Shown here one piece after another: positions 4,156-62,013 of a stretch of DNA of 64,000 nucleotides (positions are counted from its first letter, which is position 1; every line of letters starts with the position of its first letter). A program made the translations under genes and the position numbers. Below the pieces are notes generated by a model. It was not told where the DNA came from. It searched no databases and saw only the letters and a program-made list of their open reading frames with translations. Origin of the DNA: an uncultured Cryomorphaceae bacterium. Lineage in GTDB: Bacteria > Bacteroidota > Bacteroidia > Flavobacteriales > Schleiferiaceae. The stretch lies in the NCBI GenBank assembly GCA_937120475.1, contig CAKZJV010000007.1:572068-636067 (forward strand), read 5' to 3'.

Positions 4156-4923
4156 ATGAAAACCAAACACTTAGCCCTGGGCTTGTTCAGCTTATTACTG
4201 GCTTGTAACCAGGCTCCATCTGAAAAAAACATTCAAGACAAAGCGGATAGCACTTCTGCCAGGCCGGATACCGTGGCTAAAGCAAAGGAGCCCGCTCCAG
4301 CCAAAGGGCCCTACCTGGGCATTGATGTATCCCACTTTCAAGGTGACGTAAACTGGCAGGAAATTAAAGACGCAGGATTACATTTTGCCTTTGACAAGGC
4401 TACCCAGGGGACATCCTATAAAGATCCGGATTACCAGCAGAACCGCACAGGGGCGCAGGCCGTGGGCCTGAAGCACGGAGCTTATCACTTTTATGTAGCC
4501 GGTGACGACCCCCTGAAGCAGGCCGACCTTTTTCTTTCGGTGCTAAACTATGAAAAGGGAGACATGCCCCCGGTACTGGACTTGGAGCAAGGAGGAATGA
4601 AAGCCGGGATTAACACCGCCACCTACCAGCAAAATGTTTTGAAGTGGCTAACCACCGTAGAACAGAAACTGAACGTGCGGCCGATCGTTTATACCAACCA
4701 TCCCTTTGGTAACCAATACCTGGACCATCCCGATTTCAGTAAGTATGACCTTTGGATCGCTGAATATGAAGTGAGCGAACCTAAAATTCCCAACGCCTGG
4801 AAGGATAAAGGCTGGTTGATCTGGCAGCGCAGTGAGCGCGGTAAGGTAGAAGGTGCCGTAGGCGATGTGGATCATGATCTATACAATCCCAAAGCGGACT
4901 TTGTAGATGCAGCCAACCAATAA
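4156..4923 (+). CDS. glycoside hydrolase family 25 lysozyme (muramidase), lipoprotein
   Basis: GIDVSHFQGDVNW...FAFDKATQG...DP...GLKHGAYHF matches the GH25 catalytic core. Lipoprotein signal (LLACNQ). Confidence 0.75.
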   Translation: MKTKHLALGLFSLLLACNQAPSEKNIQDKADSTSARPDTVAKAKEPAPAKGPYLGIDVSHFQGDVNWQEIKDAGLHFAFDKATQGTSYKDPDYQQNRTGAQAVGLKHGAYHFYVAGDDPLKQADLFLSVLNYEKGDMPPVLDLEQGGMKAGINTATYQQNVLKWLTTVEQKLNVRPIVYTNHPFGNQYLDHPDFSKYDLWIAEYEVSEPKIPNAWKDKGWLIWQRSERGKVEGAVGDVDHDLYNPKADFVDAANQ

Positions 4924-5011
4924 TTTTGAAAATCATTCTTAACCAATAAGTTAGGGTAAATTCTGGTTTCCGTATGTTTGAACTAAGTTTTTGCCTTAAT
5001 CTATTCCTGAT

Positions 5012-6403
5012 ATGAAAAAGCTAGTACTCAGTCTTTTATTATTACCCATTTTTATCGCTCAAAGCTCCGCCAACCACATTGTAGGTGCAGAACTCAACTA
5101 CCGCATAGATGCGGCCGGAGATATTATTTTCACAGCAAATTTATATGGAAGACTCTCCCCACAAGGGTCCATTACATTTGGTGGTGGGACGGTACAAATC
5201 ACCAATAATGCAGGTATCAATATAAATATTCCCTTTGTTAAAGAAGATACTCTTCAATCGAGTATTGCGGTACCTTATGGTGTCAGGCGCAGGCAATACC
5301 AGGGAAAGGTTAATGTTTCTTCCCTAAACTGCAACAACTGCACCTTCAGTTTTTCCTATTGTTGCCGCAGTGCTTCCGCTAATTGGAATAATTCAACGGG
5401 TGTGTGGCTGGATGTTCAGGCTTTTTTGGATCTTTCAGCGGTCAATTCCTTTCCTTATTCCGGTCCATCTTTTCTGAGCGAACCCATGTATGCATTTCCG
5501 CAGGATACCCTATGGAAATACGACCTTTTGCTCTTCGATGCGGATGGGGATTCCACCTACACTTCGTTGGTCATTCCTTCCACACCGAACTATTCACTAC
5601 CTCCTTCCAATCCATCGGGCATTATTAATTTAAGCCCAGAGGGGATATTTAGCTGGAATGCTCCGGCTTCAGGAACCTACAGCCTTATTTATAAAGTTGA
5701 AAAATTTAACTCTGCAGGTGTATTAACGGGCAGTAGTACCCGTGATGTGCTCCTGGGCGTTAACCTGGATAGCTCTTTGTACGGCTACTCAATACTTCCC
5801 CCCAATATTTCCAATACCCTGGGTGGTATTCCCCTGGTTGATTTCACCGGAGATTCTACCAACCTTTTTACGCTCCCCTTTTATTTGAATGATACCAATG
5901 CTCAAATAGGCGTTACCGTTTCAGGCGCACCTTTTGAATATCAAAATTCCGATGCCGCGTTTACCGTAGCCAAGCTCAAGCGAAATAGTGATACTTTGAT
6001 GGCTGTTTTCAGTTGGAGTCCGCAGGCCGCAAGAAAAAGAGATGAGCCTTACCGGGTGGCCTTCAGTTTTTACGATGGTGCCTTTACCTATGATTACAGC
6101 GTTTACCTTACGGTGAATTCAGTAGTTGGCCAGAAGGAAAATCCCGTTAATTCCCCATTTTCCACCCTTTTCCCTAACCCCAGTAACGGAGAAGTAAACC
6201 TGGGTATCAGCGAAAACTGGTCGTCCGGTAAGTTGGAAATCCGAGCCTACAACACCTCCGGACAGCTTGTTTACCAGGAACATTTGCAAAATATTCAGCC
6301 GGGTGAAAACCTCCGCCTGTCTAAAAAATTCGAAAATGGCTTCTACCTCGTTCAATTAAAAGGTGATAAGCGCCAGGAAACCTTACCGCTATTAGTTCAT
6401 TAG
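5012..6403 (+). CDS. secreted protein with T9SS C-terminal sorting domain (Por_Secre_tail)
   Basis: Signal peptide. C-terminus FPNPSNGEVNL...GFYLVQLKGDKRQETLPLLVH is typical of a type A T9SS C-terminal domain. Confidence 0.7.
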   Translation: MKKLVLSLLLLPIFIAQSSANHIVGAELNYRIDAAGDIIFTANLYGRLSPQGSITFGGGTVQITNNAGININIPFVKEDTLQSSIAVPYGVRRRQYQGKVNVSSLNCNNCTFSFSYCCRSASANWNNSTGVWLDVQAFLDLSAVNSFPYSGPSFLSEPMYAFPQDTLWKYDLLLFDADGDSTYTSLVIPSTPNYSLPPSNPSGIINLSPEGIFSWNAPASGTYSLIYKVEKFNSAGVLTGSSTRDVLLGVNLDSSLYGYSILPPNISNTLGGIPLVDFTGDSTNLFTLPFYLNDTNAQIGVTVSGAPFEYQNSDAAFTVAKLKRNSDTLMAVFSWSPQAARKRDEPYRVAFSFYDGAFTYDYSVYLTVNSVVGQKENPVNSPFSTLFPNPSNGEVNLGISENWSSGKLEIRAYNTSGQLVYQEHLQNIQPGENLRLSKKFENGFYLVQLKGDKRQETLPLLVH

Positions 6404-6415
6404 CCTTTTACATTT

Positions 6416-6913
6416 ATGAAAAAAGTATTCTTAGCACTTTGCCTTGGACTATTTACAACTTCTCTCCTAAAAGCTCAATCCAAACTACCCGCCTCTTATT
6501 TAAACGTTGGCCTGGGGGTTGGAATGAACTATGGCATAATAGGAACCAAAACGGTTATAGGCTATAAAAACTCCGGCCTGCTGGTTGGCCTTGGTTATTT
6601 ACCGGGTGGTTTTACGGGTTACGAAGTAGGCGCTCAACTGGGCATAAATTGGTTTTTCGCCAATTTTGGCTACGGTACCATAGGTACTTACCAGGTAAAC
6701 AATGAAGACCCTCAGGTTACGGAGGCTTTTAACTTAATGGTGGGAGCAATGATAGGGCTCGGCCAGAGTAAGCGAACTTTTATTGATCTTGGTGTAGGCC
6801 ATACCTTTGGAGCTCCGGCTATTGAGTCGCCATTAGGTGAGATCGAACAGAATGCATTCACCATTGCTTTAGGCGTAGGATACCGCTTTGGAACCATCAA
6901 AAAGAGAGATTAA
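6416..6913 (+). CDS. small Gly-rich secreted or outer-membrane protein
   Basis: Signal peptide ending KAQS. Gly-rich beta-type sequence. Confidence 0.45.
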   Translation: MKKVFLALCLGLFTTSLLKAQSKLPASYLNVGLGVGMNYGIIGTKTVIGYKNSGLLVGLGYLPGGFTGYEVGAQLGINWFFANFGYGTIGTYQVNNEDPQVTEAFNLMVGAMIGLGQSKRTFIDLGVGHTFGAPAIESPLGEIEQNAFTIALGVGYRFGTIKKRD

Positions 6914-23531: not shown

Positions 23532-24599
23532 ATGGCCACAAATCAAACAGTGCCTCTTAAACCACCTGTGAAAAACCCTCACAACGTAGAGGCCACCAAG
23601 TATTACATTTTTAATGAAACCGGGAATATCATGATGGCGAGCACCATCGATTCCAGTCAACCTCTTTCACAGGAGGTACAGGACGTATTCTCAGAGGTAT
23701 CGGTTTTCTTTGCCGGAATGTCACGGGCAATTACCAATACTATTAACCCGGAAACCAATCAACCTTTTTCACTTTACAACTATACCGCACTGGGGCGTAT
23801 CATCAGCGGTTCCGGACTATTTGTTCACGTAACGGAAGAAGATGTATTGTACCAGACTAACCAGTTTGGGGCTAACTTTAGCAAAGAACTGATCGAGTCT
23901 CTTTTAGGGTTGGCTACCGGGGCCGGTGCACTGAGTTTTGCCTCGGCTATGATTTCATCTATCGGTAATGAAGGACTAAACATCAACGGCTCTAGTTCTA
24001 CGTCTGACAGTAAAGTAGGAAATATCGTTTTTGTGTGCGAATACCTCCTGGGCATGCCCATTATAAGTGCCATTGTGGTGTATTGCGATGCCAAGGAGCA
24101 CAAGCAGCAACTGCAGTTGGGTCCTTGTTTCAAAGAGTCATCGGTGACCACTTCCTGGACTATGCATAAGGATACCTACATGTTTGTAACCCCTAAATTC
24201 ATAAACAACTATGCCGGTAATCTGGATTCCATCACCTCTGACCCCCAATACCTTGAAATGATAGAGTGGTTCAGTGGACTACTGTTACAAACACCTGAGA
24301 TCAACCAGGTGGTTAACTCCAGTTACCATGACCAGCCGGTAGAGTCGGGGTCTGAACTCGATCCAGCTAACACTTATACGCTTTTAGGTCAGTTTTTTGG
24401 CAGCAAAAAAGGAAGCCTGCAGTTTACTAATAATGCTGATAATAAAGCCAGTATTACCACCGGAAGCTGGAATACCGATGCCATTTCCTTCACCGTTAAG
24501 GGTACGCTCACCACTGCTTCGGCCATTGAAGTACTGGATGCCAGCAAAAAGGTTATTGCCACTACGGCTGAGTCCTTTACCATCACGGCCAGTTCATAG
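23532..24599 (+). CDS. hypothetical protein; paralog of the next gene in its N-terminal ~100 aa
   Basis: Shares the NETGN...AITxxxNP...SGLF block with the ORF at 24665. Confidence 0.5.
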   Translation: MATNQTVPLKPPVKNPHNVEATKYYIFNETGNIMMASTIDSSQPLSQEVQDVFSEVSVFFAGMSRAITNTINPETNQPFSLYNYTALGRIISGSGLFVHVTEEDVLYQTNQFGANFSKELIESLLGLATGAGALSFASAMISSIGNEGLNINGSSSTSDSKVGNIVFVCEYLLGMPIISAIVVYCDAKEHKQQLQLGPCFKESSVTTSWTMHKDTYMFVTPKFINNYAGNLDSITSDPQYLEMIEWFSGLLLQTPEINQVVNSSYHDQPVESGSELDPANTYTLLGQFFGSKKGSLQFTNNADNKASITTGSWNTDAISFTVKGTLTTASAIEVLDASKKVIATTAESFTITASS

Positions 24600-24664: not shown

Positions 24665-25276
24665 ATGCAAAGCGGTTACGTTTACCATCAGCTGAATGAA
24701 ACCGGTAATATGCTTATCCGCAGTACAGAGCCGCATATACCGCGCCCTGTACAATTCCAATTTTCAAAATTCACCGTACTCTGTGCCGCTATTACCCGGG
24801 CCCTTCACAGTACCACCAATCCTGTGAGCGGAGTCCCCTACTCCATTTTTGATCCAAAGCATTTTGAAACGCTGCTGTTACGTTCGGGTCTGTTTGCCAA
24901 AACGGGTATGAAAACTATATTTTTCTCAACGCATAAAACCGGCCATGACTTTTGTTCAGAACTCGGTGAACGTCTTTTTGGCTTCAGTCCGGGATATAAA
25001 GTCACCTGCTCCATTTCATCCGTTTTAAACGGCCTTAACCTGCAAATAGAGAAAATGAAAAAGGACGGTAATATTGAAAGGACGCGTATTGGTCACTGCG
25101 TTTTTATTTTAAACTACCTGGATCAAAAAACCAGTATTGAAGCCCGGTTTACCTCTGTGGACTACCATAGCCACCAAAAACAAATCGAGAAAGGGGTTTG
25201 CCAGTCAGGAAAGAATGAGGAAAGCTTTTGGATCATTAGAGTGGATAAGTACCGGTTAGGGTCTTACCTAAAATGA
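24665..25276 (+). CDS. hypothetical protein (203 aa), paralog of the N-terminal domain of the 23532 gene
   Basis: NETGNM...AITRALHSTTNPV...SGLF alignment with the upstream protein. Confidence 0.5.
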   Translation: MQSGYVYHQLNETGNMLIRSTEPHIPRPVQFQFSKFTVLCAAITRALHSTTNPVSGVPYSIFDPKHFETLLLRSGLFAKTGMKTIFFSTHKTGHDFCSELGERLFGFSPGYKVTCSISSVLNGLNLQIEKMKKDGNIERTRIGHCVFILNYLDQKTSIEARFTSVDYHSHQKQIEKGVCQSGKNEESFWIIRVDKYRLGSYLK

Positions 25277-25308
25277 AACCTTTTGGATACTTACAATCCA
25301 AAAGGTTT
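25276..25308. terminator. bidirectional terminator hairpin between converging genes
   Basis: AAACCTTTTGGAT-ACTTACA-ATCCAAAAGGTTT, a 13-bp stem overlapping both stop codons. Confidence 0.55.
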
Positions 25309-25759
25309 AGCAGGAGAGTTGGTAGAAGAGGATGGCAGCCGTAAGCACAACGGGAATTAGGTAAAAGGGCAAGAGAGTATGGGAAAACATGATCCTTAAG
25401 GTACTTGGGGGATCAGTTATTTTTTCGGGCTGCCGATCAAGGGTTTTTAGATCGTATAGATATTGATCCATTGTAGGGCGGTGTTGTATCAACCATTCGT
25501 AGATTCTGCGGAACTTGCGCTCTTTTTGTAAAAAGAAGGCATCCAGGTACCAGAAGCAAAATACCGGCACTAACAAACTGAGCGAAAGCAATAAGCCTAC
25601 GATACTCTTTTCCAGCAGCAAAGCATCTTTACCCAGCACAATAACGGCCATAAAAATACCGATGGCCCATCCTTTTACTTTAAAGGCATTATCAGCCATG
25701 CGCTTGATCGCGTCTTGTAATAAGTCCAGTTCTTTATGAATTTGTTCTTGTGTGGGCAT
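25307..25759 (-). CDS. small multi-TM membrane protein, putative effector partner of the TIR protein
   Basis: 150 aa. Soluble ~30-aa N-terminus followed by two or three hydrophobic helices. The gene overlaps the upstream LRR-Roc-COR-TIR gene by 26 nt, so they form an operon. Confidence 0.55.
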   Translation of the reverse strand: MPTQEQIHKELDLLQDAIKRMADNAFKVKGWAIGIFMAVIVLGKDALLLEKSIVGLLLSLSLLVPVFCFWYLDAFFLQKERKFRRIYEWLIQHRPTMDQYLYDLKTLDRQPEKITDPPSTLRIMFSHTLLPFYLIPVVLTAAILFYQLSC

Positions 25760-28700
25760 CGTCTTTTGGTTGGTTTTCTTCTAAAGGTTCTGTTTTGTAG
25801 CGGTGGGGTTCTTTAATGGCTTTTTCAAGGTATTGGATCACCTTCGTCCAGGCTTCATCCCTATCGGTATGGGCGGTTACGGGTTTCGCCTTTAGCGGCA
25901 TATTGATCTCGGCAAAGGGCAATTCATCTATCACGCAATGGCGCAGCATTACAGGCATCACCACTATTTCCTTGGCGTAATGCTCATCTTCTCCTTTATG
26001 ACGTTTCATAGTAATGGAAAGTTCTTCGGTCCAGATGTAATCGGTGGCAATGAAATCGGAGGACACCAACAAGATGATCACATCGGCTTTCTCCAACTCT
26101 TCCTTAATGCGAGGGTCCCAGTTTTCCCCGGCCAGCAATTCTCGGTCGTGCCAGGAGGAGATCAAACCTCTGCGTTTGAGGCTCATCAGGTGCTTATCCA
26201 GTTCTTCACGGTACAGGCTGTCTTTGGAAGAATAGGAAATAAACACCTTTTTCATGCGGAATTGTAGGGGTTTTACCACCTTCAAAATCTCCTCAAACTG
26301 GTTGATCTCAAAACGCCTGACTCGCTTTAAGGGCCGATTGTGCTCCTCTGCTTTTAAAACCTCATGCTGAAAAACGTGGATGTTGTTTTCCACTTTAGTG
26401 AGTAAGAGGTGCAGTGGAATAAAATTCTCTCCACCGGGGCTTACCTCCAGGTTTACAAAGGGATGTTCACGATAATGAAATTCCCAATCAAATTCATTTT
26501 GAAGTTGATAGGATACACCATCTCGACCTTGAATAATAGTTTGAGATTTTAAAGGGAAACCTTCGGTTAATCTCATACTTGTATTTATTAGGTCTATAGT
26601 ATCCAAAACGGATAGTAGTAAGCGGGAGGGTTTGCCCTGCTGCTCCACCTGGTAAAACTCAATCACGTTCAACGCACGGTTTAGCTTCACCATCAGGCTC
26701 TCGGTTTTCTTATCTTCATTTTCCCGGCTTAGTATAAAACCGTTGCGCCAGTAGGCGTATTTGCGCCCTCCCTTAGCATCATGGTACTTAAAATCCGCTT
26801 TCAGATCTGAAAAAATGCGAATGATGAAGTTGCGGTGTAAAAAGCCCTGGTAGTTGTATCGGTATAAAGCCCGTTTAAAATGGGGTAAGAACAAACGGGT
26901 GGAAGTATCGGCTTCCAGGCTGAGGTATTGCGGAGCTACGTAACGATCACCCAGCTTAAAAACGATCTGGTTTTTATCTAGAAAATGTTTCACTAGTTGA
27001 ATTACCTCCGGTTTTTCGCTTTTTAGAGCCCTGTTCAGGTGCTCCTGATCAAATTCACCGGCTTCCAGGCCACGCGCAGTTTTGGCCACGGAGTGGCTTA
27101 GCACTTTGTAGATCCTTTGGGACAATTCCTTTGGCTTCAGTACCACATAGTCCTCTGTCTCTTCACTACCTTTCTTTTTAAGCCGGGCGGTCAGCACCAG
27201 GCCTTTCACTTCCATTACCTGTAATGCCGTGAATAAACTATTGTTATCTTCCCCAGGGACCTGGAACAGTTGGGTTAAATCCTCTTTGCGGACATACCAG
27301 GGAAAGGCTTCCACTTGTTTTACTTTTCCGGTTTTTTCCAGCCCCACCCCCTGCAACAGGCGGTTGCGGATGGCTTTATGGCCTTCCAGTATGGTACCGG
27401 CCAAACCGGGGATGAGGTCATTTAATAACACCGGCACCAGGCCAATACGGTGTGGATCATCCGGGTTCAACGAAAGTTCTATGGCGGTATCTATAAAGGA
27501 AAAGTACTTTTTCAGATGGAGAGTATCCACTCCGGATGCAGCCGGTTTAGCGGGCTTCTTATCGACTTTCGCTTCTTCTTTTTCCACCTTCTCTTTAGGG
27601 AAGCTGTTTTGCAGTAACAGCAAGCTGGTGGCATCTTCCAATGCCTCATCCGTATTGGTATGTTTTTTATACGATAGAGAAGAAAAATAATTTACCGCAC
27701 CCAGCCAATACTCCACCGGAAAATTTTCGTTTTTCAGGCGCTGATCATTTTCGATGGGCTCGTAAAAATTGCGATCCGGCCGCCACAGTAACAGGTACAG
27801 GCTGTTGTGGCTGAAAAAGAGGTGGTGGGTATCGTGGTAATATTCCTGCCCGCCAAAATCAAACAGGTTCAGGTAGTACTCCGTAGAACCTAGTTTATAC
27901 GGAAACCGTTTGATGGCCAAGCCGTGCGTACTTTTTTGTTTGCGGGTTTTCACGTTCTTCACTTGTAACCGCGACAAGTAATCCGCCAGGGTAGTTTTAC
28001 CGCTGCTACCGTTGCCGATGAGCAATACTTTTAATTCATTATCCGGTACTTTTTGTTCTCCTTCCTCCAAACGTTGAAAATAATCCAGTACCGCCTCCCT
28101 ACCCGCTTCTATTTTTTCCAGTAAATCAGCTGCTAAGGGATTATTCTTCAAAATGACCCCTCCCTCGTTAAGCTTCCATTCTATTTTAAACGCCAGCTTT
28201 TCGTTTCCTTCCAGAAGGGGTATAAGCGGCCGTACATCCTCAATTTTATTATGGGAGAGATCAAGTTCGGTCAACTGGCTCAGCCCGGATAAGGGACGGA
28301 TATCGCTAATTTTATTACTGGAAAGAAGTAGTAAGGTCAACTGGCTCAGGCCAGATAAGGGGCGGATATCGCTGAGTTTATTCTCGGAAAGACCAAGTTG
28401 GTTCAACTGACTCAGACCGGATAAGGGTTTGATATCGCTGATTCGATTCCCGGAAAGATCAAGTCGGGTCAACTGGCTTAGCCCGGATAAAGGGCTGATA
28501 TTATCAAGCTGATTCCCGGAAAGATCAAGTTCGGTCAACTGGCTCAGGTCGGATAAGGGACGGATATCGATGAGTTGATTCCCGGAAAGGTCAAGTTCGG
28601 TCAACTGGCTCAGACGCGATAAGGGGCGCATATCGCTGAGTTGATTATAGGAAAGACCAAGTTGGTTCAACTGGCTCAGCCCGGATAAGGGGCTGATACT

Positions 28701-28952
28701 ATCAAGCTGATTCCCGGAAAGATCAAGTTCGGTCAACTGGCTCAGGCCCGATAAGGGTTTGATATCGATGAGTTGATTATTGGAAAGATCAAGTTCGGTC
28801 AACTGGCTTCCCAGTTTTTCAATTTCTTCGGGAATACGTTGCAAGCGCAGTGCGCTTAAATCTAAATTATCTGCTTTACTTTGATATGCGTCTTCTATGC
28901 GCCTGAGCGCTACATCATAAGCGGAATCATCTTTATCACTGTTTTTTTGCAC
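25734..28952 (-). CDS. LRR-Roc(GTPase)-COR-TIR multidomain protein (ROCO-family protein with a C-terminal TIR domain)
   Basis: About nine 22-aa leucine-rich repeats (LSGLSQLTELDLSGNQL). Roc G1 motif GNGSSGKTT and G3 motif DFGGQE. Long COR-like middle region. C-terminal TIR (KVFISYSSKD...SWHD...ILLVS...WTEEL). Confidence 0.8.
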   Translation of the reverse strand: MQKNSDKDDSAYDVALRRIEDAYQSKADNLDLSALRLQRIPEEIEKLGSQLTELDLSNNQLIDIKPLSGLSQLTELDLSGNQLDSISPLSGLSQLNQLGLSYNQLSDMRPLSRLSQLTELDLSGNQLIDIRPLSDLSQLTELDLSGNQLDNISPLSGLSQLTRLDLSGNRISDIKPLSGLSQLNQLGLSENKLSDIRPLSGLSQLTLLLLSSNKISDIRPLSGLSQLTELDLSHNKIEDVRPLIPLLEGNEKLAFKIEWKLNEGGVILKNNPLAADLLEKIEAGREAVLDYFQRLEEGEQKVPDNELKVLLIGNGSSGKTTLADYLSRLQVKNVKTRKQKSTHGLAIKRFPYKLGSTEYYLNLFDFGGQEYYHDTHHLFFSHNSLYLLLWRPDRNFYEPIENDQRLKNENFPVEYWLGAVNYFSSLSYKKHTNTDEALEDATSLLLLQNSFPKEKVEKEEAKVDKKPAKPAASGVDTLHLKKYFSFIDTAIELSLNPDDPHRIGLVPVLLNDLIPGLAGTILEGHKAIRNRLLQGVGLEKTGKVKQVEAFPWYVRKEDLTQLFQVPGEDNNSLFTALQVMEVKGLVLTARLKKKGSEETEDYVVLKPKELSQRIYKVLSHSVAKTARGLEAGEFDQEHLNRALKSEKPEVIQLVKHFLDKNQIVFKLGDRYVAPQYLSLEADTSTRLFLPHFKRALYRYNYQGFLHRNFIIRIFSDLKADFKYHDAKGGRKYAYWRNGFILSRENEDKKTESLMVKLNRALNVIEFYQVEQQGKPSRLLLSVLDTIDLINTSMRLTEGFPLKSQTIIQGRDGVSYQLQNEFDWEFHYREHPFVNLEVSPGGENFIPLHLLLTKVENNIHVFQHEVLKAEEHNRPLKRVRRFEINQFEEILKVVKPLQFRMKKVFISYSSKDSLYREELDKHLMSLKRRGLISSWHDRELLAGENWDPRIKEELEKADVIILLVSSDFIATDYIWTEELSITMKRHKGEDEHYAKEIVVMPVMLRHCVIDELPFAEINMPLKAKPVTAHTDRDEAWTKVIQYLEKAIKEPHRYKTEPLEENQPKDDAHTRTNS
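28150..28860 (-). repeat. in-frame tandem 66-bp coding repeats (LRR units) with very high nucleotide identity
   Basis: Repeated ...ggaaagatcaagttcggtcaactggctcagcccggataaggg... units seen directly in the sequence. Confidence 0.7.
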
Positions 28953-29087: not shown

Positions 29088-29131
29088 AAAAAAGATCAAA
29101 AGCCCCGCCAGGTTTTCAGAACCTGACGGGC
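29088..29131 (-). terminator. rho-independent terminator downstream of rtcB
   Basis: GCCCGTCAGGTT-CTGAAA-AACCTGGCGGGGC hairpin followed by a T-run on the minus strand. Confidence 0.55.
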
Positions 29132-29137
29132 CTATGT

Positions 29138-30535
29138 TCAATCCACCTCGTGAAACCGCACATCGCCACACATCCTCACGATCTTTGGGGTAAATGATCC
29201 CAGGATGTCCACGAGCTCCTGCTGGCTGTTCATCACGGTATGGATGTCCTTATAAGCCATAGGTGCTTCATCCAGTCCGGAACCGATCACCTCCACCCCA
29301 TGATCATTCAGGTGGCGCACCACCTCTTTATAGTCCAGGGTTTTCTTGGCCTGGGTTCGGCTCATCACCCGCCCTGCCCCGTGTGAAGTGGAGTTGATAG
29401 AGTGTGCTATACCGCGCCCCCGTACAATGTACCCGGGAGCCGTCATGGAGCCGGGAATGATCCCCAACACGCCTTCACCGGCCGGGGTGGCACCTTTACG
29501 GTGTACGATCACTTCCTCGCCTTTGGCGTTCTTCTCTTTCCAGGCGAAGTTGTGATGGTTTTCCACCCTGGCCAATGGTGTGGTTCGTAAGCCTACGGCC
29601 ATGCGTTCATGGATCTGGTGATGACAGGCCGAAGCGTAGTCACCGGCCAGGTTCATGGCCGCCCAATATTCCTTACCGGCATCGGTATCCATATCCAACC
29701 AGGCTAGGTGCCGCGCTTCCTGCGGAAGCTTGGTAGTGTTCATAGCCAGATTGGTATAATGGCGGGCAATGTTCGCCCCCAATCCACGGGAACCGGAATG
29801 CGACAACAGGCCCATATACGTACCAAGCGGCAGGTTGAACTCATTATCCTCTTCCGTAATACGCACTTCACCAAATTCTACAAAGTGGTTACCCCCACCG
29901 GACGAACCAATCTGCCGCCAGGCGCGGTCTTTCAGGTTTTTTACCACTTCCAGTTCTTTGAATTCATCGCGCTCAAAAATTTCGTGATCCATGATGTATT
30001 TGAAAGAAGCATTTCCGAAACGGGTGTTGTTGTTCAGCATTTTCTTTAAAGCCTCCTTATCAGTTTCCAACCGCTCTTTCGGCATATCGTAAATGGATAA
30101 GCACATACGGCAGCCGATGTCCACACCTACCCCATACGGTATCACCGAATTTTTGGTAGCCAATACACCCCCGATCGGTAAACCGTAACCCTGGTGGGCA
30201 TCCGGCATTAAAGCACCGGAATCCGCTACCGGTAATTTCATAGCGGTGTACATCTGGTGCAGGGCTCCTTGTTCAATATGCTCTTCACCGTAGATCTTGA
30301 AATCCAGGTGCTTTTCACGCAGCGCAATCGGCTCTCTTTTCGCTTCTTCCACCAATGCTTTGGCAATAGCTCCGAAGCTTTCATCTTCCAGGTACGCTTC
30401 CGGCTCTTGTGCTACTTTTTGCAGCGTTTCCAGATAGGCTTTTTTGCTGTATTGGGTATGGGGTTTCAACGCCATTCCGAAGGCCGGGCCTTCCGGAAAG
30501 TTGATGTTCTTTAAGTCTTTAGATGTTATTTTCAT
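29138..30535 (-). CDS. rtcB: RtcB-family RNA ligase (3'-phosphate/5'-OH)
   Basis: GGGNHFVEFGEV and STSHGAGR motifs, about 465 aa. Start taken at MKITSKDL. The longer track ORF reaching 30646 would overlap the repeat element in the promoter region. Confidence 0.75.
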   Translation of the reverse strand: MKITSKDLKNINFPEGPAFGMALKPHTQYSKKAYLETLQKVAQEPEAYLEDESFGAIAKALVEEAKREPIALREKHLDFKIYGEEHIEQGALHQMYTAMKLPVADSGALMPDAHQGYGLPIGGVLATKNSVIPYGVGVDIGCRMCLSIYDMPKERLETDKEALKKMLNNNTRFGNASFKYIMDHEIFERDEFKELEVVKNLKDRAWRQIGSSGGGNHFVEFGEVRITEEDNEFNLPLGTYMGLLSHSGSRGLGANIARHYTNLAMNTTKLPQEARHLAWLDMDTDAGKEYWAAMNLAGDYASACHHQIHERMAVGLRTTPLARVENHHNFAWKEKNAKGEEVIVHRKGATPAGEGVLGIIPGSMTAPGYIVRGRGIAHSINSTSHGAGRVMSRTQAKKTLDYKEVVRHLNDHGVEVIGSGLDEAPMAYKDIHTVMNSQQELVDILGSFTPKIVRMCGDVRFHEVD

Positions 30536-30610
30536 AACTGTATTTTTATAAATTTCATCCTGAGTACTCCGTCCGAAATAATCGGGATTACAGTATATTA
30601 AAGGGTTGTA

Positions 30611-30718
30611 TTCAGGCTTCGATACGCCTTCCCTTCGGTCAGCCACTCAGCCTGACACTGTTTTAATTTGTTGGGTCACAGGGAGCACCTGCCTGACGGA
30701 CAGGTGCTCAGGATGACC
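30611..30718. repeat. GC-rich palindromic intergenic repeat, copy 1 of a three-copy family
   Basis: Contains GGCGTATCGAAG, CCTGACGGACAGG and AGGATGAC blocks shared with the copies at 33227 and 35416. Internal hairpin GAGCACCTG-N9-CAGGTGCTC. Confidence 0.6.
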
Positions 30719-33388: not shown

Positions 33389-33400
33389 GGACTTTATTTG

Positions 33401-33483
33401 TGGGAGTGATAAGATTCGAACTTATTGAGCCAAAAGCACCGGTTTTACAGACCGGCCTACCTCACCATCGGTAGCGCACTCCC
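33401..33483 (-). tRNA. tRNA-Tyr (anticodon GTA), type II with a long variable arm
   Basis: Folded by hand: acceptor GGGAGTG/CACTCCC, D-arm CTAC...GTAG, anticodon stem CCGGT/ACCGG with loop CTGTAAA, T-arm ATAAG-TTCGAAT-CTTAT. CCA is not encoded. Confidence 0.7.
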
Positions 33484-33640: not shown

Positions 33641-35368
33641 GTGCCCGTTAACCGTAATGCCCTTATCCGCTACCGCACCCTTGATAACTGCCTGCGTAAC
33701 CGTTTCAGAAAGTGGACTTTAGAAGACCTGATTGAGGCCTGCTCGGATGCCCTGTACGAGTATGAAGGCATTGATAAGGGGGTAAGCCGCAGAACGGTGC
33801 AAATGGATATCCAGATGATGCGCAGTGATAAACTGGGTTACAATGCACCCATCGTGGTTTTGGAAAAAAAGTATTACACCTACGAGGACCCGGATTATTC
33901 CATTACCAATATTCCGCTCACCGACCAAGACCTGATTAAACTTACCGAGGTAACTGAGATCCTGCGACAGTTTAAGGGCTTTACCCATTTTCAGGATCTG
34001 GATGGAATGGTGAACCGCCTTGAAGACAAGATCTACACCGCTAAAACCCACCAACAACCCATTATTGATTTTGAAAAGAATGAAAACCTGCGGGGCCTGG
34101 AATACATTGACCCGCTTTACAAGGCCATCCAGCAGAAGCATTGCGTTAAAGTGGCCTACCAAAGCTTTAAAGCCAGGGTGCCGCAGGAGATTACCTTCCA
34201 CCCTTTTCTCCTTAAAGAATTCCGAAACCGCTGGTTTTTGCTGGGTGCTCATAATAAAGGAAAAACAACTATGCTTTTAGCGCTGGACCGGATTACCTCG
34301 GTTTCGCCTTTAAAAGCCCTGGCTTGTTGCCAACCCGGTTTTGATGTACAGAACTATTTCAAGGATGTGGTAGGTGTTACCGTTAATCAAGGCGATACCA
34401 CTGAAAAGATTATCCTTTTTGTAGATCGTAGAAACGCCCCTTACGTGATCACCAAACCTATTCATCCCAGCCAGGAAGTGCTGGAGAGCAATAAGTTCGG
34501 TATCATTATCTCCTTGCACGTTCAACTCAATTACGAATTGGAACGGGAGATACTGGGCTTTGGCCCGCAAATGAAAGTACTGGCCCCCCACCATTTCAAA
34601 AGACGAATGAAGAACCTCCTACGAGAGGCTGTGGATACTTATGAATCAGAGATCACTACGCCTCGTATGAAACAATCCCAAAACCGATTGCAAAAAAGGG
34701 GTTACGACATACTACAGCAGGTTTTTACCACCCGTGAAACCGATAAAATGAAACATATTATCGGTAAATACCTCAATAGTGTTAATGAAAATCCCGGGGG
34801 TAAGAAAAGTATTTCCATCCGGCAACTGCTGCAAAAAATACCGGAATTGGAACGATTGATTTTCAACGCCAATATGGATAAACTCCTGCAAGAATTGATT
34901 CCTGGATCCCGGCTCACCAAGGCCATATATTTTGATAAGCCCCACTTGAGCAACTGGTATGTTACCTGGCACCAGGACATTACGATAAATGTCAAAGAAC
35001 GTATTGATACGGAAGGTTTTTCCGGATGGACCAGTAAAGAGGGGTTCTTTGCCGTTTGTCCACCCGAAGAGTACCTTCACAAAACTCTTACTATCCGTAT
35101 TCACCTCGATGATTCGCTGGAGAGCAATGGTACCCTGAAGGTGATACCGGGTACCCATAAAAAGCGGCTCTCCGATGATGAAATTCAACTGATCACCCAA
35201 AACACCAGCCCTGCTGTTTGCGAGATTCCTAAAGGTGGTGTTCAGTTTATGAAACCTTTACTTCTCCATAGCTCCTCCAAATCCAAAGCACAACGTTCTC
35301 GCAGGGTGATCCACCTGGAATTTTGTACGGCTGAATTACCGGTAGGTTTGGAATGGAGTGAAAATTAG
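33641..35368 (+). CDS. WYL-domain transcriptional regulator (HTH-WYL-WCX) fused to a C-terminal PhyH-like Fe(II)/2OG dioxygenase domain
   Basis: N-terminus NALIRYRTL...VSRRTVQMDIQMM (wHTH). WYL-like core FHPFLLKEFRNRWFLLG. C-terminal ~240 aa with WHQD...NGTLKVIPGTHK...RRVIHLEF, an HxD...H oxygenase signature. Single uninterrupted 575-aa ORF. Confidence 0.6.
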   Translation: MPVNRNALIRYRTLDNCLRNRFRKWTLEDLIEACSDALYEYEGIDKGVSRRTVQMDIQMMRSDKLGYNAPIVVLEKKYYTYEDPDYSITNIPLTDQDLIKLTEVTEILRQFKGFTHFQDLDGMVNRLEDKIYTAKTHQQPIIDFEKNENLRGLEYIDPLYKAIQQKHCVKVAYQSFKARVPQEITFHPFLLKEFRNRWFLLGAHNKGKTTMLLALDRITSVSPLKALACCQPGFDVQNYFKDVVGVTVNQGDTTEKIILFVDRRNAPYVITKPIHPSQEVLESNKFGIIISLHVQLNYELEREILGFGPQMKVLAPHHFKRRMKNLLREAVDTYESEITTPRMKQSQNRLQKRGYDILQQVFTTRETDKMKHIIGKYLNSVNENPGGKKSISIRQLLQKIPELERLIFNANMDKLLQELIPGSRLTKAIYFDKPHLSNWYVTWHQDITINVKERIDTEGFSGWTSKEGFFAVCPPEEYLHKTLTIRIHLDDSLESNGTLKVIPGTHKKRLSDDEIQLITQNTSPAVCEIPKGGVQFMKPLLLHSSSKSKAQRSRRVIHLEFCTAELPVGLEWSEN

Positions 35369-53989: not shown

Positions 53990-54021
53990 AGACATATGCA
54001 AATCTTAATTAACTTAGAAGC

Positions 54022-55848
54022 ATGCGACCAAGCCGAACCTCTCAGAATCAACCATTCAAGAACAAACCCAAACAGGATACACCCAATAGCGAAGAACTGA
54101 AAAAACAGTTAGATACTTCTTCTGCACTAAACCGCACACTAGGCTTAGCTTTTATGAGCGTATTGATTTATATGCTCATTACAATAGCTTTGGTTACGGA
54201 TATGACCCTCTTATTGCCCGATAGCAAAGTAAATCTACCCATTATTAATGTGGAAATCGGGTTATTTTCATTTTTCCTAGCAGCGCCCATATTAGTTTTA
54301 GGCCTTCACTTTAATTTATTGATTAACCTGTCCAACCACAGTGCTAAACTTAAAAACTGGCTAGATAGAAAAGCAAATAAAGAGCAAGCTCAAAAGGAAG
54401 TACATCCTTTTATTTTCAATCAACTACCCTTTTTAAGAAAAGGAAATATAAAAGATTACTTGACCTTTAGTTTGGTTAAAATTGGAGTCTTTTATATGCC
54501 TCTTGCGGTAATGCTATTGATGCAACTGCGTTTTTCAGATTATCAAAGTTCATGGATGACCATCCTGCATTTTAGTTTTCTTACTGTCGATTTTTTATTA
54601 ATTCGAAATTATTACTCGGAAATCATTCTGGATAAGTATCCTATCAATTTCAAAAAGACTTTTTCTTTTTGGAATTATTCTTTTTTAGCAGTTGGAGTTA
54701 TTAACCTTTTAATCTTTGGGATTGTGATACTTAACTGGTTTCCTGAAAAAACTGGGGCCTTTATGCATAAGTCTCAAAACTGGTTTGCAGAACAAATAAA
54801 ACCCAGGATTACAATCAAGGGATCAATTCAGGCAGATGATAATATCACTGAATTTACCTTGTATTATATGAATAAAGGTTTTTCAGAAAGTGATTCAAAG
54901 GAACAAGCAACACATTTTTTTGGAAATAGTATTAATATAGAACACCGAAATTTTAATTACGCTGTCCTACAGTCAATCAATCTAAGCCACAATGACCTTA
55001 GAGATGTAGAACTATTTGGAGCTGATCTCAGATATTCCTACCTTCAAAAGGTTAATTTACAAGCTGTTCATTTAAAAGCTGTCAACTTAGCTCATACCAA
55101 ACTGCAAGGAGCAGTTCTAAATGGGGCTAAATTAGTGGGGCTTAACCTACAGTCGGCCAAGTTACAGGGCGCAAATCTGGCCAATGCTAATTTAGCAGGA
55201 GCTAATTTAAAGTATGCCGAACTACATGAAACCTTTTTATTCGCAACTAAATTCCAAGGTGCTATTTTATCTGGTGCTAAGTTAGAGGGGATTTATTTAA
55301 ACCAGTCAAATTTTGGTGGTGCGCTTATGGTGCATACTTATCTAAAAGGAATCGGAGGCTCTATTCTTGCTGTCTATTATATACCTAATTCTGGTTATCC
55401 TACAAGTCTTGAATACTCTGATAGTCGTATTAAAGAAACATTTGAGGAAACCCTTGAAAAATATGCTTTTAAATCGCAGATCTTGCAAAATAGAGCTAAA
55501 AAAAGATCAGAAGCTTACCCAATAATTAGATCTAGTTTAAATAGTTTTATTATAGTAAGAAAATCATTATTGGATAGCATAAACATACCTCTTAATCATC
55601 TTTTTATAGGGGGTAACGATATCGTTTGGTCCCCAGACTCAACGGTTAACAGTGAAATAGCTTTACACAATAGCATTCTCTATCAACATCTCAAAACCCA
55701 TGTTCCCCACCGCTTAGAGGAGTTTCGTAAAGACAGTGCTAACTTTATTTTTTCAACTACTCAACTTCAAATGAAGAACCCTAGCCTAAGCCGGGGTTCT
55801 TCTTCTCCAAACAACCAAAAATCAAATAATACTATTCCGCACCCGTAG
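54022..55848 (+). CDS. membrane-anchored pentapeptide-repeat protein
   Basis: N-terminal TM helices. Long run of A(N/D)LxxAxL pentapeptide repeats (LQGANLANANLAGANLKYAEL). Confidence 0.75.
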   Translation: MRPSRTSQNQPFKNKPKQDTPNSEELKKQLDTSSALNRTLGLAFMSVLIYMLITIALVTDMTLLLPDSKVNLPIINVEIGLFSFFLAAPILVLGLHFNLLINLSNHSAKLKNWLDRKANKEQAQKEVHPFIFNQLPFLRKGNIKDYLTFSLVKIGVFYMPLAVMLLMQLRFSDYQSSWMTILHFSFLTVDFLLIRNYYSEIILDKYPINFKKTFSFWNYSFLAVGVINLLIFGIVILNWFPEKTGAFMHKSQNWFAEQIKPRITIKGSIQADDNITEFTLYYMNKGFSESDSKEQATHFFGNSINIEHRNFNYAVLQSINLSHNDLRDVELFGADLRYSYLQKVNLQAVHLKAVNLAHTKLQGAVLNGAKLVGLNLQSAKLQGANLANANLAGANLKYAELHETFLFATKFQGAILSGAKLEGIYLNQSNFGGALMVHTYLKGIGGSILAVYYIPNSGYPTSLEYSDSRIKETFEETLEKYAFKSQILQNRAKKRSEAYPIIRSSLNSFIIVRKSLLDSINIPLNHLFIGGNDIVWSPDSTVNSEIALHNSILYQHLKTHVPHRLEEFRKDSANFIFSTTQLQMKNPSLSRGSSSPNNQKSNNTIPHP

Positions 55849-57558
55849 GTGGTTGTAGGGATCTTCTACCAAATTCTCTTTGACCTCCACCAGTTTGTCG
55901 TAGTTCTGGGCAAAGTAGGTTTTAGTGGGTATGGAACTGTCTTTAAAGCTGATAAAGGCCCCGGAGGTGTTGGGGATGTCGTAATCCCGTGCTACCTCCA
56001 TCCAGTCCAATGCCCGGTTGGTACGGGTGTACACTTTGTTGTTTTGCCTTTTATCCACTTCGTACTCATGGGTATTCCACCAGGTTTGGTACTGTATGGT
56101 GTACAGCATTTGCTTGTAAGGGAAAGCACTGTCTCCACCTTGCGGATTGTTGCGGTAGTAATCGCCCACAATGGCACCCAGGGTCACGTAACTCATTAGT
56201 CCCAGTTTGCGATTGCCTTCCAGCAACAGGTCGGAGGTAAGGCTGTGCAGCAGGGCTTCATAGCCATCACTACCTAATCCCTGCGGCTCTACCAGGCGCG
56301 AAGTGATCTTATGCGGGGCCGGATCATCGTAATCCGGGGGCAGGGGTTTGCCCTGTAGCAGTAGTTGCTTGTGTTCGGGGTGAGCATCCAGCTCCTCTCC
56401 CCTTTCATGGCGGGCCATTAAAATGGGGTTGAAAGATTCTCGCGCCCAGTTGCTCATCAGGTTTTCACCGTACACTTCATCGGAATCGGAACCCCCTTCT
56501 CCATCATTTTTAACCACGTCCGGTTTCACTCCTTTTTCGGTGAACCACTCATTAATGAATTCCTCCAGCGAGCTCCAGTCTCCTTCCCAATAGCCGTACA
56601 TGCGGCAGTTGTGGCATACGGTATCTTTATTAAAGGGCTGCTCACCGGCTGGCTTAGCGTTGATCTGCAGGTTGGTACCGATCAGTTGACTGGTCTGGTC
56701 AGATTCAATGGCCGCCTCCCAGGCTCGTAGAACCTTGATGGTAGGATGGTTGTGCAGTGGCTCATCGCTATCCACTGGTTCGTAAGGGTTCCAGTCCAGG
56801 TGAAAGCGGATCAGCTTGGGCGGCAGTTCAAAGGTCTGTATGCGGAATTCCGTCACCAGGCCATAGCTCATGGCACCACCACCTCGCAAGGCCCAAAGCA
56901 GTTCCGGTGTATTGCTGCCTTCGGCATCCACACTTATCCGCTCACCGTTACCCAGTACCAGGTCAGCACCTTTCAGCCACTCGCAACACATCCCGTGCTT
57001 ACGCGTCCAGGGGCCCCAGCCCCCACCCATTATGAAACCGGATATACCTACGGTAGCACAAGTGCCGTGGGCGATCATTACGTCTTTATCGGCCAGCTTG
57101 GTAGTGAGGTTTTTAAAGATATTACCCGGCCCTATAGCCGCCAGGCCATTGGCCCCTACATCCACCTTATCCATTCTGGATACGTCAATCAATATAGTAT
57201 TGGTACCCGTACACTCTCCTTCGTGGTCGTGACCGCCCGCACGGATGCGTACCGGTAGGTTTAATGCTACCGCCAGGCGGTAGGTGATCTGCACATCTTC
57301 CGGTTGGGCACAGTACACTATGGCCCAGGGCTTTTCCTGGAAACGCCTGTTGAAGATCTGGCAGTGCTCATTGTAAACAATCTGGTGGGCCCAGTCGCCC
57401 GCTACTACCATTATTTCAGTAGCCGCGCTCACCTCTTTCTTTACCTGGTTTAAATAATCGGCCAGAGTTCCCGCTTTGGAATCAAGATTGGTTGATTCGT
57501 TGTTCATGTTGGTTTGGTTTAAATTAGTAATAAAGCTATATAGTAAAAGCCTTAGCAT
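55822..57558 (-). CDS. FAD-linked oxidase, berberine-bridge-enzyme-like (PCMH-type FAD-binding)
   Basis: PVRIRAGGHDHEG FAD-binding motif, about 578 aa. Confidence 0.7.
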   Translation of the reverse strand: MLRLLLYSFITNLNQTNMNNESTNLDSKAGTLADYLNQVKKEVSAATEIMVVAGDWAHQIVYNEHCQIFNRRFQEKPWAIVYCAQPEDVQITYRLAVALNLPVRIRAGGHDHEGECTGTNTILIDVSRMDKVDVGANGLAAIGPGNIFKNLTTKLADKDVMIAHGTCATVGISGFIMGGGWGPWTRKHGMCCEWLKGADLVLGNGERISVDAEGSNTPELLWALRGGGAMSYGLVTEFRIQTFELPPKLIRFHLDWNPYEPVDSDEPLHNHPTIKVLRAWEAAIESDQTSQLIGTNLQINAKPAGEQPFNKDTVCHNCRMYGYWEGDWSSLEEFINEWFTEKGVKPDVVKNDGEGGSDSDEVYGENLMSNWARESFNPILMARHERGEELDAHPEHKQLLLQGKPLPPDYDDPAPHKITSRLVEPQGLGSDGYEALLHSLTSDLLLEGNRKLGLMSYVTLGAIVGDYYRNNPQGGDSAFPYKQMLYTIQYQTWWNTHEYEVDKRQNNKVYTRTNRALDWMEVARDYDIPNTSGAFISFKDSSIPTKTYFAQNYDKLVEVKENLVEDPYNHLRVRNSII

Positions 57559-60700: not shown

Positions 60701-61141
60701 CAACTCAAAGTGAGTCGCTATAAGGCTTGAAGCTGCGTTGAGGTATATTCCTAATTCGGTATCGTAATGGGCCGGTAGTAAGGCTACGTAATCAATATTC
60801 TGATCATCGGCCAGGGCCGCACTCGCTTCACTTTCATCCAATTGCTTCCCGCATATTCCAAAGAATTTCAGATCAGCATCGGGTAAACCCGGTATTTCAA
60901 AGTTACCCTCGTGATCGGTATGACTTACCGCGATAATGCCAGAGCCGTTCAGCTTTTGAACGATGATCGTACCCGATGCTTCTTCATCAGAACCCAGGTT
61001 TAAATGTCCTATTATGTCCATTGGTTTAGTTTGTATTTTCTTAGAAATGTTAAAAGTTGAACCCTTATAGCGGTTTACAGCATTATGAGGAATGGTTATG
61101 ACTGGATTTGCTCTCAACTCCCCTATTGTCATACGCGCCAC
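57704..61141 (-). CDS. large protein (1145 aa) with about 400 aa of C-terminal aromatic repeats (lectin or tectonin-type beta-propeller-like) and an unknown N-terminal region
   Basis: Repeats of Y..G.W.YQ.L..L / V.YRD.N..L..LY.NGS.W.YQNL. No signal peptide. Confidence 0.5.
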   Translation of the reverse strand: MARMTIGELRANPVITIPHNAVNRYKGSTFNISKKIQTKPMDIIGHLNLGSDEEASGTIIVQKLNGSGIIAVSHTDHEGNFEIPGLPDADLKFFGICGKQLDESEASAALADDQNIDYVALLPAHYDTELGIYLNAASSLIATHFELEQQGNIKDSDAWTRDFLFGNFLSKMLSGYTTDFMAATAPPSVFDADKFAAMVKSSGNCRAYCRKLVKGQLDKRPGELPFASQEKGLAIAQEDAEDDTGAPTIPASANWAYKNPAWWSIIEQHPNMTTGMKQMADTIDGIAYMASQGNTTLAETATEEGTLGNSLGDFAKWAKGQMTGAVGSFVSNYLLNLCKDSIFGEKSKKQEIINTLGKIRTQLNTVVSNQHLILQDLNAIIHLLDANTLENIMLTLDKPVSTIKSNAQKLRTYSGTQSGKSSSSLHDFAKKVLDQDKGVYEAMVDINTIIQQVAGINLPKAMRRVTETGLMSNTNFYFIAQQLFLYYSSLQVQGAQLVVQAYNYKSNASVSKLDSPLKVSAEAIDYYNRYLIGGTRADGEKPILEQQRDLYRSENEVYYSSFQGMVGNQLPSDLCVGLLPDVAQQNAPLFYNLESNLLLYGMVSQNLKNWTSGYDVLNKNPGAQNWVLPPIKGWRYPTTDEWNSIIASAKTEHFNDIFKYLFDRGLVADGRKSSFTSLWTRDSKLQKKIWQTNTHQFYQPAIPQPTDSAYSTYIDWWRKDYGGGGLFGHGPWNYRFTGTYPLAFTSTCATEAFSSLILGGEDYPWLLVSGGVMVTDAASLQSPAKVNSNPVVFEYNQTQVVYCDAQNHISNIWNNNDQWTYQDLSTLCGYNGEATGNPSVVVSGEDLYILFNDTHGKLHCMQYDGTNWTVTDITTQSQQNAGSGLTVPDAQGSPSAILFSSLLNVFYRDANNELSCIYLNGSQWTYYSPYQDSQASKALYGDPDAYIYQGQLHVLYPADVYMQACDIYYINNQWHFQLLSKLTPALGSEQGQGTVRGCQFNNYGQEEAHNVYRNENNHVADFYYTGQWGYQVLNQLVPGVNVPDANGNPVPFSSAVNFLHVVYQDSNEQLSDLYWNGSQWNYQNLYELVNSSMGVTVPAPKGPVSLIAPFFLVFRDENDELSCILYNGQDWVYQNLSQMAVAKAP

Positions 61142-61507
61142 TACCAGATAAAAATAAGCCTTCTACCAATCTCTTTTACCTTGATTTAAAGTATTTTATA
61201 AGCTGACCATTCCAACTTTGGAACCAAGGTCCGTTGATTCGTTGTTCATGTTGGTTTGGTTTTAAGAATAAAAAAATTGTACCACCCATATTATTAAAAT
61301 ATGACTTCTTAAAACCATTATTTGTGGGAATCACCTTATTTTTTGAGTGAATGACCCGTATGCGCTACTCAATAAATATGTGTTAACCCTAAGTACAGAA
61401 CTACAGATCATAAATATTTGGGTGTGAAATAAAAGTTTGATTTGCTTCTGAATAAATTATCTTTTACATTGCCCAATATTTTTGAAACCAAACCAAACCC
61501 CTTCTTT

Positions 61508-61837: not shown

Positions 61838-62013
61838 ATTAACATTCTGTAGTGGCGAAAATCACAAATTTAAATTCCGAGCATAGTTAACATTAACCAA
61901 CAAAATAGTCAGTTGTAATTAGGATATTTCCATACTATCATGGATTTGGAACAAAAGAATATTTCATCAATTTAAACTTTAAATCTATTTGACTATATCT
62001 TATTGATCAAACC

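Follow-up and report, generated by a model that had tools for sequence, protein, structure and literature searches.

We analysed a 64,000-nucleotide stretch of DNA (the window) from contig CAKZJV010000007.1 of an uncultured Cryomorphaceae bacterium (assembly GCA_937120475.1), and in particular two overlapping genes on its minus strand. One encodes a 1072-aa protein that joins leucine-rich repeats (LRRs), a Roc small-GTPase domain, a COR-like region and a C-terminal TIR domain (a ROCO-TIR protein), and the other encodes a 150-aa membrane protein. The cassette is probably a two-gene type V Thoeris-like abortive-infection system, a reading to which we give a probability of about three in four. 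Type V Thoeris pairs a TIR protein, ThsB, with a membrane protein, ThsF, and this combination has been validated (Yirmiya et al., bioRxiv, 10.64898/2025.12.03.692087). The earlier note, made from the letters of the window, had read the pair functionally as a TIR protein with a membrane effector. This was upheld, as the TIR is of the ThsB type with its catalytic glutamate intact and the family of the small protein pairs with TIR genes across phyla.

Both open reading frames (ORFs) were found exactly where the earlier note had placed a two-gene operon. The ROCO-TIR gene, which is thsB-like by its Pfam and PADLOC ThsB matches, starts with GTG and occupies 25734..28952 (minus strand), and the thsF homolog starts with ATG and occupies 25307..25759 (minus strand). 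Their overlap of 26 nt was read directly in the sequence, and we take it to be real because the 150-aa protein begins where its homologs do, with N-termini that align residue for residue. A terminator-like hairpin of 11 bp (7 GC) followed by a T-run lies 3' of the RtcB gene, between that gene and the operon (29104..29130, minus strand). A second hairpin, of 13 bp, directly follows the thsF stop codon (25276..25308, minus strand) and is common to the convergent gene that ends at 25276. The hairpin scan listed no terminator-like hairpin at the junction of the two genes and only weak matches within the 1072-aa ORF (9 against 5.1 expected by chance). With hairpins on both sides and none at the junction, the gene pair looks like its own transcription unit.

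Sequence comparison identifies the 150-aa protein as a ThsF homolog. For reference, the validated ThsB of Bacillus thuringiensis (IMG 2624526259, Table S2 of the preprint) was retrieved at 100% identity, and its ThsF is the next, downstream gene of 141 aa (L091:3773-4198). BLASTP aligned the window protein end to end with this ThsF (Bt DAR 81934; 31% identity over 147 aa, E 7e-20), and the family profile matched it with an hhalign probability of 99.92% (E 2.5e-35); the small gene of the window is therefore named a thsF homolog. The protein also matched all four PDC-M50A models of PADLOC-DB v2 (best PDLC04686, 2.1e-32), and gave no Pfam match at E<=10 and no NCBIfam match. Its AlphaFold2 (AF2) monomer model has three long helices (residues 4-48, 53-93 and 130-149; pLDDT 86.5), in agreement with the two or three transmembrane (TM) helices predicted earlier, and hydrophobic cores could be read from the sequence at about 31-48, 53-75 and 130-149. 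A Foldseek search of the model against the PDB found nothing (best E = 2).

Alignments of the family place its conserved residues in two clusters, one in the N-terminal helix (...RMxxN[SA]FxxKGW...) and one in the segment after helix 2 (...FWYLDAFFLxxERxxRxxY...), and most of the near-invariant residues are kept in the window protein. Conserved basic residues (R20, K29, R84 and R94) fall on the predicted cytoplasmic side. By the positive-inside pattern both conserved segments would be cytoplasmic, which is consistent with the published model of ThsF, a three-TM protein triggered by 3' cyclic ADP-ribose (3'cADPR) and predicted by AlphaFold3 to form a homo-heptameric channel with positive pockets (Yirmiya et al., 2025). 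The suggestion that the small protein might be a SLATT or other 2TM effector had to be dropped: no SLATT or other Pfam profile was matched by the window protein at E<=10, no SLATT profile by any of 89 family members at E<=0.05, none of these 89 carried a meaningful Pfam family, and PADLOC returned PDC-M50A only for the window protein.

The TIR fold proposed for the C-terminus of the large protein was borne out by profile searches. The domain covers aa 900-1055 (25788..26255, minus strand), with a match to the PADLOC ThsB model PDLC00420 at 1.1e-41 and to Pfam TIR_2 over aa 903-1008 (3e-12, 47.5 bits against a cut-off of 28); PADLOC also reported SAVED_TIR. In an alignment with reference Thoeris TIRs, E977, the second glutamate of the WTEEL motif (codon 26022-26024), occupied the column of B. 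cereus ThsB E85, and the same alignment showed this glutamate to be kept in all six ROCO-TIR partners that directly adjoin a ThsF gene. These matches identify the domain as a ThsB-type TIR with an intact catalytic glutamate. With the domain as query, phmmer had no match at E<=0.01 among PDB sequences.

The remainder of the 1072-aa protein also has the make-up described earlier, the Pfam LRR and Roc matches, like TIR_2, being above cut-off and the COR-A and COR-B matches below threshold. About nine LRRs of 22 residues span aa 29-246 (28215..28868, minus strand; Pfam LRR_4 2.4e-38, LRR_8 4.6e-28). Tandem Repeats Finder reported the underlying DNA (28254-28808) as an array of period 66 nt with 8.4 copies and 78% matches, which fits the count of about nine in the earlier note. 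The LRR-coding DNA (28248-28808) also has a 198-nt super-period of higher identity (83%), a sign that blocks of three repeats may recently have been duplicated or homogenised. The core of the Roc domain lies at aa 308-395 (27768..28031, minus strand; Pfam Roc 2.2e-11, 44.5 bits against a cut-off of 27). Its best PDB matches are Roco proteins (4wnr, M. barkeri Roco2, 1.4e-15; LRRK2, about 1e-10; C. tepidum Roco, 3e-8), and the domain is a Roc GTPase of the Roco type. The motif alignment found the G1 motif GNGSSGKT (313-320), switch I (STHG) and the G3 motif DFGGQ of switch II (365-369) intact; WTEEL, at 974-978, was likewise present as quoted earlier. The COR-like region (26571..27254, minus strand) follows Roc in the expected order and position, with COR-A at aa 567-677 and COR-B at aa 698-794, both under the Pfam gathering score. 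LRR-Roc-COR-TIR proteins are common in bacteria.

To place the small protein in its family, we searched protein clusters, genomes and plasmids. An exhaustive profile search returned 3,546 cluster representatives (50% identity) at E<=1e-3, of which 1,369 also passed E<=1e-10; most are 140-160 aa long, and homologs were found on 137 plasmids; the family is far larger than the 470 type V systems counted in the preprint (Yirmiya et al., 2025). A scan of one genome per species among GTDB representatives gave 416 confirmed homologs, and 80 loci were examined. These loci span Bacteroidota, Omnitrophota, Planctomycetota, Elusimicrobia, Clostridia, Leptospiraceae and others, with most from metagenome-assembled genomes (MAGs) of Bacteroidota, the phylum in which type V systems are reported to be enriched (Yirmiya et al., 2025). 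Among tightly coupled upstream neighbours, 33 of 63 carried TIR_2 and 20 of 63 ThsB_TIR; among those downstream, ThsB_TIR was present in 22 of 28 and PDC-M50B in 14 of 28. A same-strand adjoining TIR gene was found at 61 of the 80 loci by an iterative local search, which could hop between domains but whose count agrees with the Pfam tallies. The TIR proteins next to ThsF family members resemble the validated B. thuringiensis ThsB, and BrxL or pAgo genes are occasional neighbours.

The plasmid homologs, identified by tblastn against PLSDB, are carried mainly by conjugative plasmids and are nearly always annotated as hypothetical proteins. Forty of the plasmids are from Klebsiella and 36 from E. 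coli, and other hosts include Campylobacter, lactobacilli, Streptomyces and a Halorussus archaeon, as well as a Priestia locus (L090). One Klebsiella copy (L088, 3270-3539) is truncated by an IS3 element. The E. coli plasmid pECO-816c (L089, 3492-4797) encodes a 141-aa member with 41% identity to the window protein (hhalign 99.65%), and its gene lies 16 nt upstream of a TIR gene. The entry for this TIR in Table S1 of the preprint is labelled 'DUF2270 - Type V' (Yirmiya et al., 2025). At two loci (L086, L087), TIRs that share about 50% identity with the type V ThsB adjoin SIR2 or Macro-domain genes, and no ThsF is present. Here the same TIR clade is wired to other effectors of Thoeris, and the preprint likewise reports this (Yirmiya et al., 2025).

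The particular partnership seen in the window recurs within this family. A ROCO-TIR gene lies immediately upstream of ThsF in both of the close relatives checked that had usable flanks, and the gene overlap or near-abutment is kept in the ROCO-TIR/ThsF pairs of relatives. Roc-containing ORFs were present within 3.5 kb of ThsF at 20 of the 80 loci, which include those of 16 of the 30 ThsFs most similar to that of the window. At 11 loci (L006, L009, L010, L011, L016, L017, L019, L023, L026 and L056, with L012 partial; for example L006:947-6477) the pairing takes the form of a conserved four-gene operon, in which the ROCO-TIR (805-1038 aa) comes first. Genes for a TIR protein (about 230 aa) and for a ParA-like ATPase-TIR (about 480 aa) follow, with that for ThsF last, which makes three TIR proteins per ThsF. 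The hosts are Saprospiraceae/Chitinophagales and one Thermoanaerobaculia MAG, and the TIR domains of these ROCO proteins are 41-48% identical to the window TIR. The two-gene cassette of the window looks like a minimal form of this operon.

Other arrangements were also seen. In the ParA-like-TIR proteins, the column of the catalytic glutamate holds W in L006 (4548-6005) and I in L017 (4560-6002), and the glutamate is kept in L010 and L016; those without it may be non-catalytic, regulatory TIRs. A Hyphomicrobiales MAG (L036:853-6486) has two tandem Roc-TIR genes directly upstream of ThsF, encoding proteins of 1053 aa with LRRs and 664 aa without, and in a Mucilaginibacter (L028:1820-6492) a gene for a 1369-aa ROCO-TIR is found 75 nt away from ThsF and on the other strand.

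These results suggest how the cassette could work. The 1072-aa protein would take the role of ThsB and serve both as the sensor and as the synthase of the signal: its LRR array would detect a cue of infection, its Roc-COR GTPase would act as a conformational or dimerisation switch, and its C-terminal TIR, through E977, would turn NAD+ into an ADP-ribose-derived second messenger, possibly 3'cADPR by analogy with the type V system of B. thuringiensis. ThsF would assemble in the membrane as a homo-oligomer and bind the signal on its cytoplasmic side, the location of its conserved polar and basic residues. Once bound, it would compromise membrane integrity, perhaps as a pore, and stop phage replication by abortive infection. 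A more specific proposal is that an LRRK2-type Roc-COR switch gates the TIR second messenger that opens ThsF, making the protein a bacterial counterpart of the plant TIR-type nucleotide-binding LRR receptors (NLRs) with a Ras-like GTPase in place of a STAND ATPase, and that in the four-gene operons several differently regulated TIRs, some lacking the glutamate, may feed a single effector by assembling with or regulating one another. We hold this proposal tentatively, with the odds slightly against it. If the cassette is functional, it would be the first bacterial Roco (LRRK2-family) GTPase with a readable output, namely TIR signal synthesis and ThsF toxicity; it would offer a tractable assay for LRR-Roc-COR switching, and it would broaden Thoeris, so far equipped with small, stand-alone ThsB sensors, to multidomain sensors that resemble NLRs.

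Comparison with known systems shows which parts of the cassette are familiar. As in the validated type V systems, the window has an effector homologous to B. thuringiensis ThsF with three predicted membrane helices, and its operon also holds a TIR gene whose catalytic glutamate is intact. The validated ThsBs, in contrast, are TIR proteins of about 250 aa, whereas the window TIR is the C-terminal domain of a far longer LRR-Roc-COR protein. Two Bacillus type V systems were validated and a Vibrio one failed in E. coli (Yirmiya et al., 2025). In that preprint, the available supplements contain no LRR, Roc or GTPase terms, fused ThsB sensors are not taken up in the text, and the Table S1 entries listed include no ROCO-type TIR peptides. 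The PDC-M50 system (A + B) of PADLOC-DB v2 is similar in that the small protein matches its A component and that PDC-M50B, a ThsB-like TIR protein, is encoded just downstream of family members at the 14 of 28 loci given above. It differs in that the window TIR protein matches the generic ThsB model rather than PDC-M50B and carries a ROCO module. Literature searches for 'PDC-M50' and for WP_024198578 found no paper.

The large protein also has a precedent. A passage of Kaur, Burroughs, Iyer and Aravind (eLife, 2021; PMC8195603) describes proteins with LRRs, an AP-GTPase (Roc), COR and a C-terminal TIR as predicted conflict systems, in which the C-terminal domain is variable (TIR is one of at least 24 alternatives) and which are multi-copy in filamentous Bacteroidetes. 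The window protein shares with them the N-terminal variable LRRs, the Roc-type GTPase, COR and the C-terminal TIR. Unlike the window, where the TIR is coupled to ThsF and signal synthesis is therefore implied, that passage treats the C-terminal domain as the effector and mentions no downstream membrane effector. In types II and VII Thoeris, which use the TM-Macro protein ThsC and the SLATT protein ThsH, a TIR signal likewise activates a membrane-spanning effector, but the signals differ (His-ADPR and canonical cADPR) and ThsF has no Macro or SLATT domain; its sensing surface must therefore lie in its short cytoplasmic helices. Plant TIR-NB-LRR proteins and bacterial Avs/STAND-TIR proteins resemble the window protein in that a single chain carries a sensor made of repeats, a switch of the NTPase type and a TIR as output, although their switch is a STAND ATPase and that of the window a Ras-like Roc-COR GTPase. 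The plant receptors have the order TIR-NB-LRR, whereas that of the window protein is LRR-NTPase-TIR. Human LRRK2 and other ROCO proteins are related through Roc, since the window domain is detectably similar to that of LRRK2 (about 1e-10), but the output here is a TIR and not a kinase. No relevant experimental study of bacterial Roco proteins in defence against phage came up in a literature search.

The earlier claim that this architecture is not among the described defence systems must therefore be narrowed. The TIR and ThsF core was validated in 2025 and was already listed in PADLOC as the candidate PDC-M50, and LRR-Roc-COR-TIR proteins were predicted as conflict systems in 2021. Since core and fusion protein had each been described, the combination is not a new class. 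We found no description of ROCO-TIR with ThsF or of the four-gene operons, and only this combination appears to be undescribed.

Several observations count against the type V assignment. One type V system was unresponsive to 3'cADPR (Yirmiya et al., 2025), and 3'cADPR therefore cannot be assumed as the signal here. In PADLOC, the 1072-aa protein had no match at E<=0.1 to the PDC-M50B models (PDLC04688, ThsB-like TIR). The preprint labels ThsF as pfam PF10028, 'DUF2270' (Yirmiya et al., 2025), and in hmmscan scans reaching E<=10 this family was matched neither by the window protein and its family members (89 examined) nor by the validated ThsF of B. thuringiensis; homology was therefore established directly through the validated locus. 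The DUF2270 label is not reproducible by standard Pfam scanning and must derive from a more sensitive method. Because hmmscan against Pfam-A gives no match even for the validated ThsF, standard annotation pipelines will miss this effector family.

A further point against the assignment came from sampling in the opposite direction: none of six LRR-Roc-COR-TIR loci chosen from the side of the large protein carried ThsF, and the fusion therefore does not need it. Conservation of the pairing in other genomes, on which the earlier note had made its proposal depend, thus holds from the ThsF side within a subclade (2 relatives, 20/80, 16/30) and fails from the ROCO side (0/6). Three of the six loci (L004, L094, L095) have no recognisable partner at all, as would be expected if the ROCO-TIR were a self-contained, NLR-like sensor-effector whose TIR depletes NAD+ (as in Avs-TIR, TIR-STING and SPARTA), with ThsF as an accessory effector or anchor. 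The placement of TIR in the 'effector position' of LRR-AP-GTPase-COR proteins, in the passage of Kaur et al. (2021; PMC8195603), also agrees with NAD+ depletion. We nevertheless judge this alternative, the strongest of those considered, to be unlikely. The ThsF of the window is homologous to an effector that is triggered by a TIR product, and its pairing with ROCO-TIR is conserved, with genes that overlap or nearly abut. In addition, other ROCO-TIR loci adjoin predicted signal-sensing effectors such as TPR-S proteins, which fits a signal synthase, and the three TIRs per ThsF of the four-gene operons correspond to the layout of several TIRs per effector reported for other Thoeris systems (Yirmiya et al., 2025).

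The neighbours at other ROCO-TIR loci are varied and include TPR-S or TPR-S-trypsin genes, ThsB clusters with patatin, and an unrelated small multi-TM gene. At L096:874-8543 and L005:1433-13699, LRR-Roc-COR-TIR genes lie among TPR-S genes (one fused to trypsin), several ThsB_TIR genes and a patatin gene; L005 adjoins conjugative-transposon genes (DUF4133/DUF4134), and one protein of L096 (P0083) has a TIR at both ends. In Thiothrix fructosivorans (L093:4001-7641), the gene after that for the LRR-Roc-COR-TIR protein overlaps it by 4 nt and encodes a multi-TM protein of 163 aa. This small protein shows no relation to ThsF and no Pfam match, and may be a different membrane effector for ROCO-TIR. 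Because ROCO-TIR loci without ThsF carry such varied other partners, the data fit a ROCO-TIR that is a modular signal generator, wireable to different effectors.

The GTPase module supplies two more points against a functional type V system. In the motif alignment, the [NT]KxD of homologs at Roc G4 is replaced by QN-SFPKEKVEKEEA-KVD, that is, QN, 12 residues and KVD. The Lys/Glu-rich stretch QNSFPKEKVEKEEAKVDKKPAKPAAS that interrupts G4 (about aa 465-490; window 27480-27560) occurs in no aligned homolog, and guanine-nucleotide binding or nucleotide specificity may therefore be altered. Of the G1-G4 set that marks Roco proteins, G1, switch I and G3 are thus present and G4 is interrupted or degenerate. 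The COR matches are also weak (COR-A 4.8e-6, 27.0 bits against a cut-off of 35.3; COR-B 4.8e-4, 20.4 bits against 27); ROCO-TIR partners of ThsF at other loci match COR-A at 2.8e-35 and COR-B at 1.4e-35. Both features would suit a decaying or inactive remnant whose GTPase has lost its nucleotide specificity, as would a 90%-identity cluster that holds this protein alone and the lack of a defence-island context. Such decay seems improbable to us, more so than NAD+ depletion, given that both ORFs are intact (1072 and 150 codons), that the P-loop, switch I, switch II, the TIR glutamate and most near-invariant ThsF residues are kept, and that the gene overlap and terminators are preserved.

The last point against the type V reading is that no recognisable defence island surrounds the locus. 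The genes around it have housekeeping or regulatory roles (two-component systems, RtcB, an SPFH protein), and to our knowledge bacterial Roco proteins have no established physiological role, both of which would leave room for a signalling module with no part in defence, such as one that uses a Roco GTPase and a membrane protein in envelope or stress signalling. We regard this as very improbable, since the window TIR is ThsB-type by PADLOC, family members adjoin BrxL, pAgo and Gabija-like genes and occur on conjugative plasmids, and a ThsF family member protects against phage (Yirmiya et al., 2025). The validated B. thuringiensis locus (L091) has the defence-island context that the window is without, with a DAC/DACNH diadenylate-cyclase gene (1-1119) on one side and a UvrD-helicase and OLD-TOPRIM/AAA_15 (Gabija-like) pair on the other (4454-6759).

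Around the gene pair, RtcB (29138-30646) and tRNA-Tyr (33400-33483) are followed by an unusual fusion of WYL, WCX and PhyH (phytanoyl-CoA dioxygenase-like) domains, encoded on the plus strand next to the tRNA (33641-35368). These are the neighbours by which the earlier note had placed the locus in an accessory region; they are present, and the accessory status is only weakly supported because PADLOC, run on 12 other proteins of the window, found no further defence gene. The idea that the window is a defence island was likewise considered and rejected, as only the WYL protein and a weak PDC-M43B match spoke for it. Convergent with the operon, on the plus strand, are two genes (23532-24599 and 24665-25276) whose products had no Pfam, NCBIfam or PADLOC match and are paralogous to each other (29% identity over 199 aa, E 1e-24). 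Farther along the window, a 608-aa ORF (54022-55848) without a PADLOC match lies in the first of two low-GC patches (54001-56000 and 61001-62000), where the GC content is 0.33-0.38 against about 0.45 elsewhere, which suggests foreign DNA.

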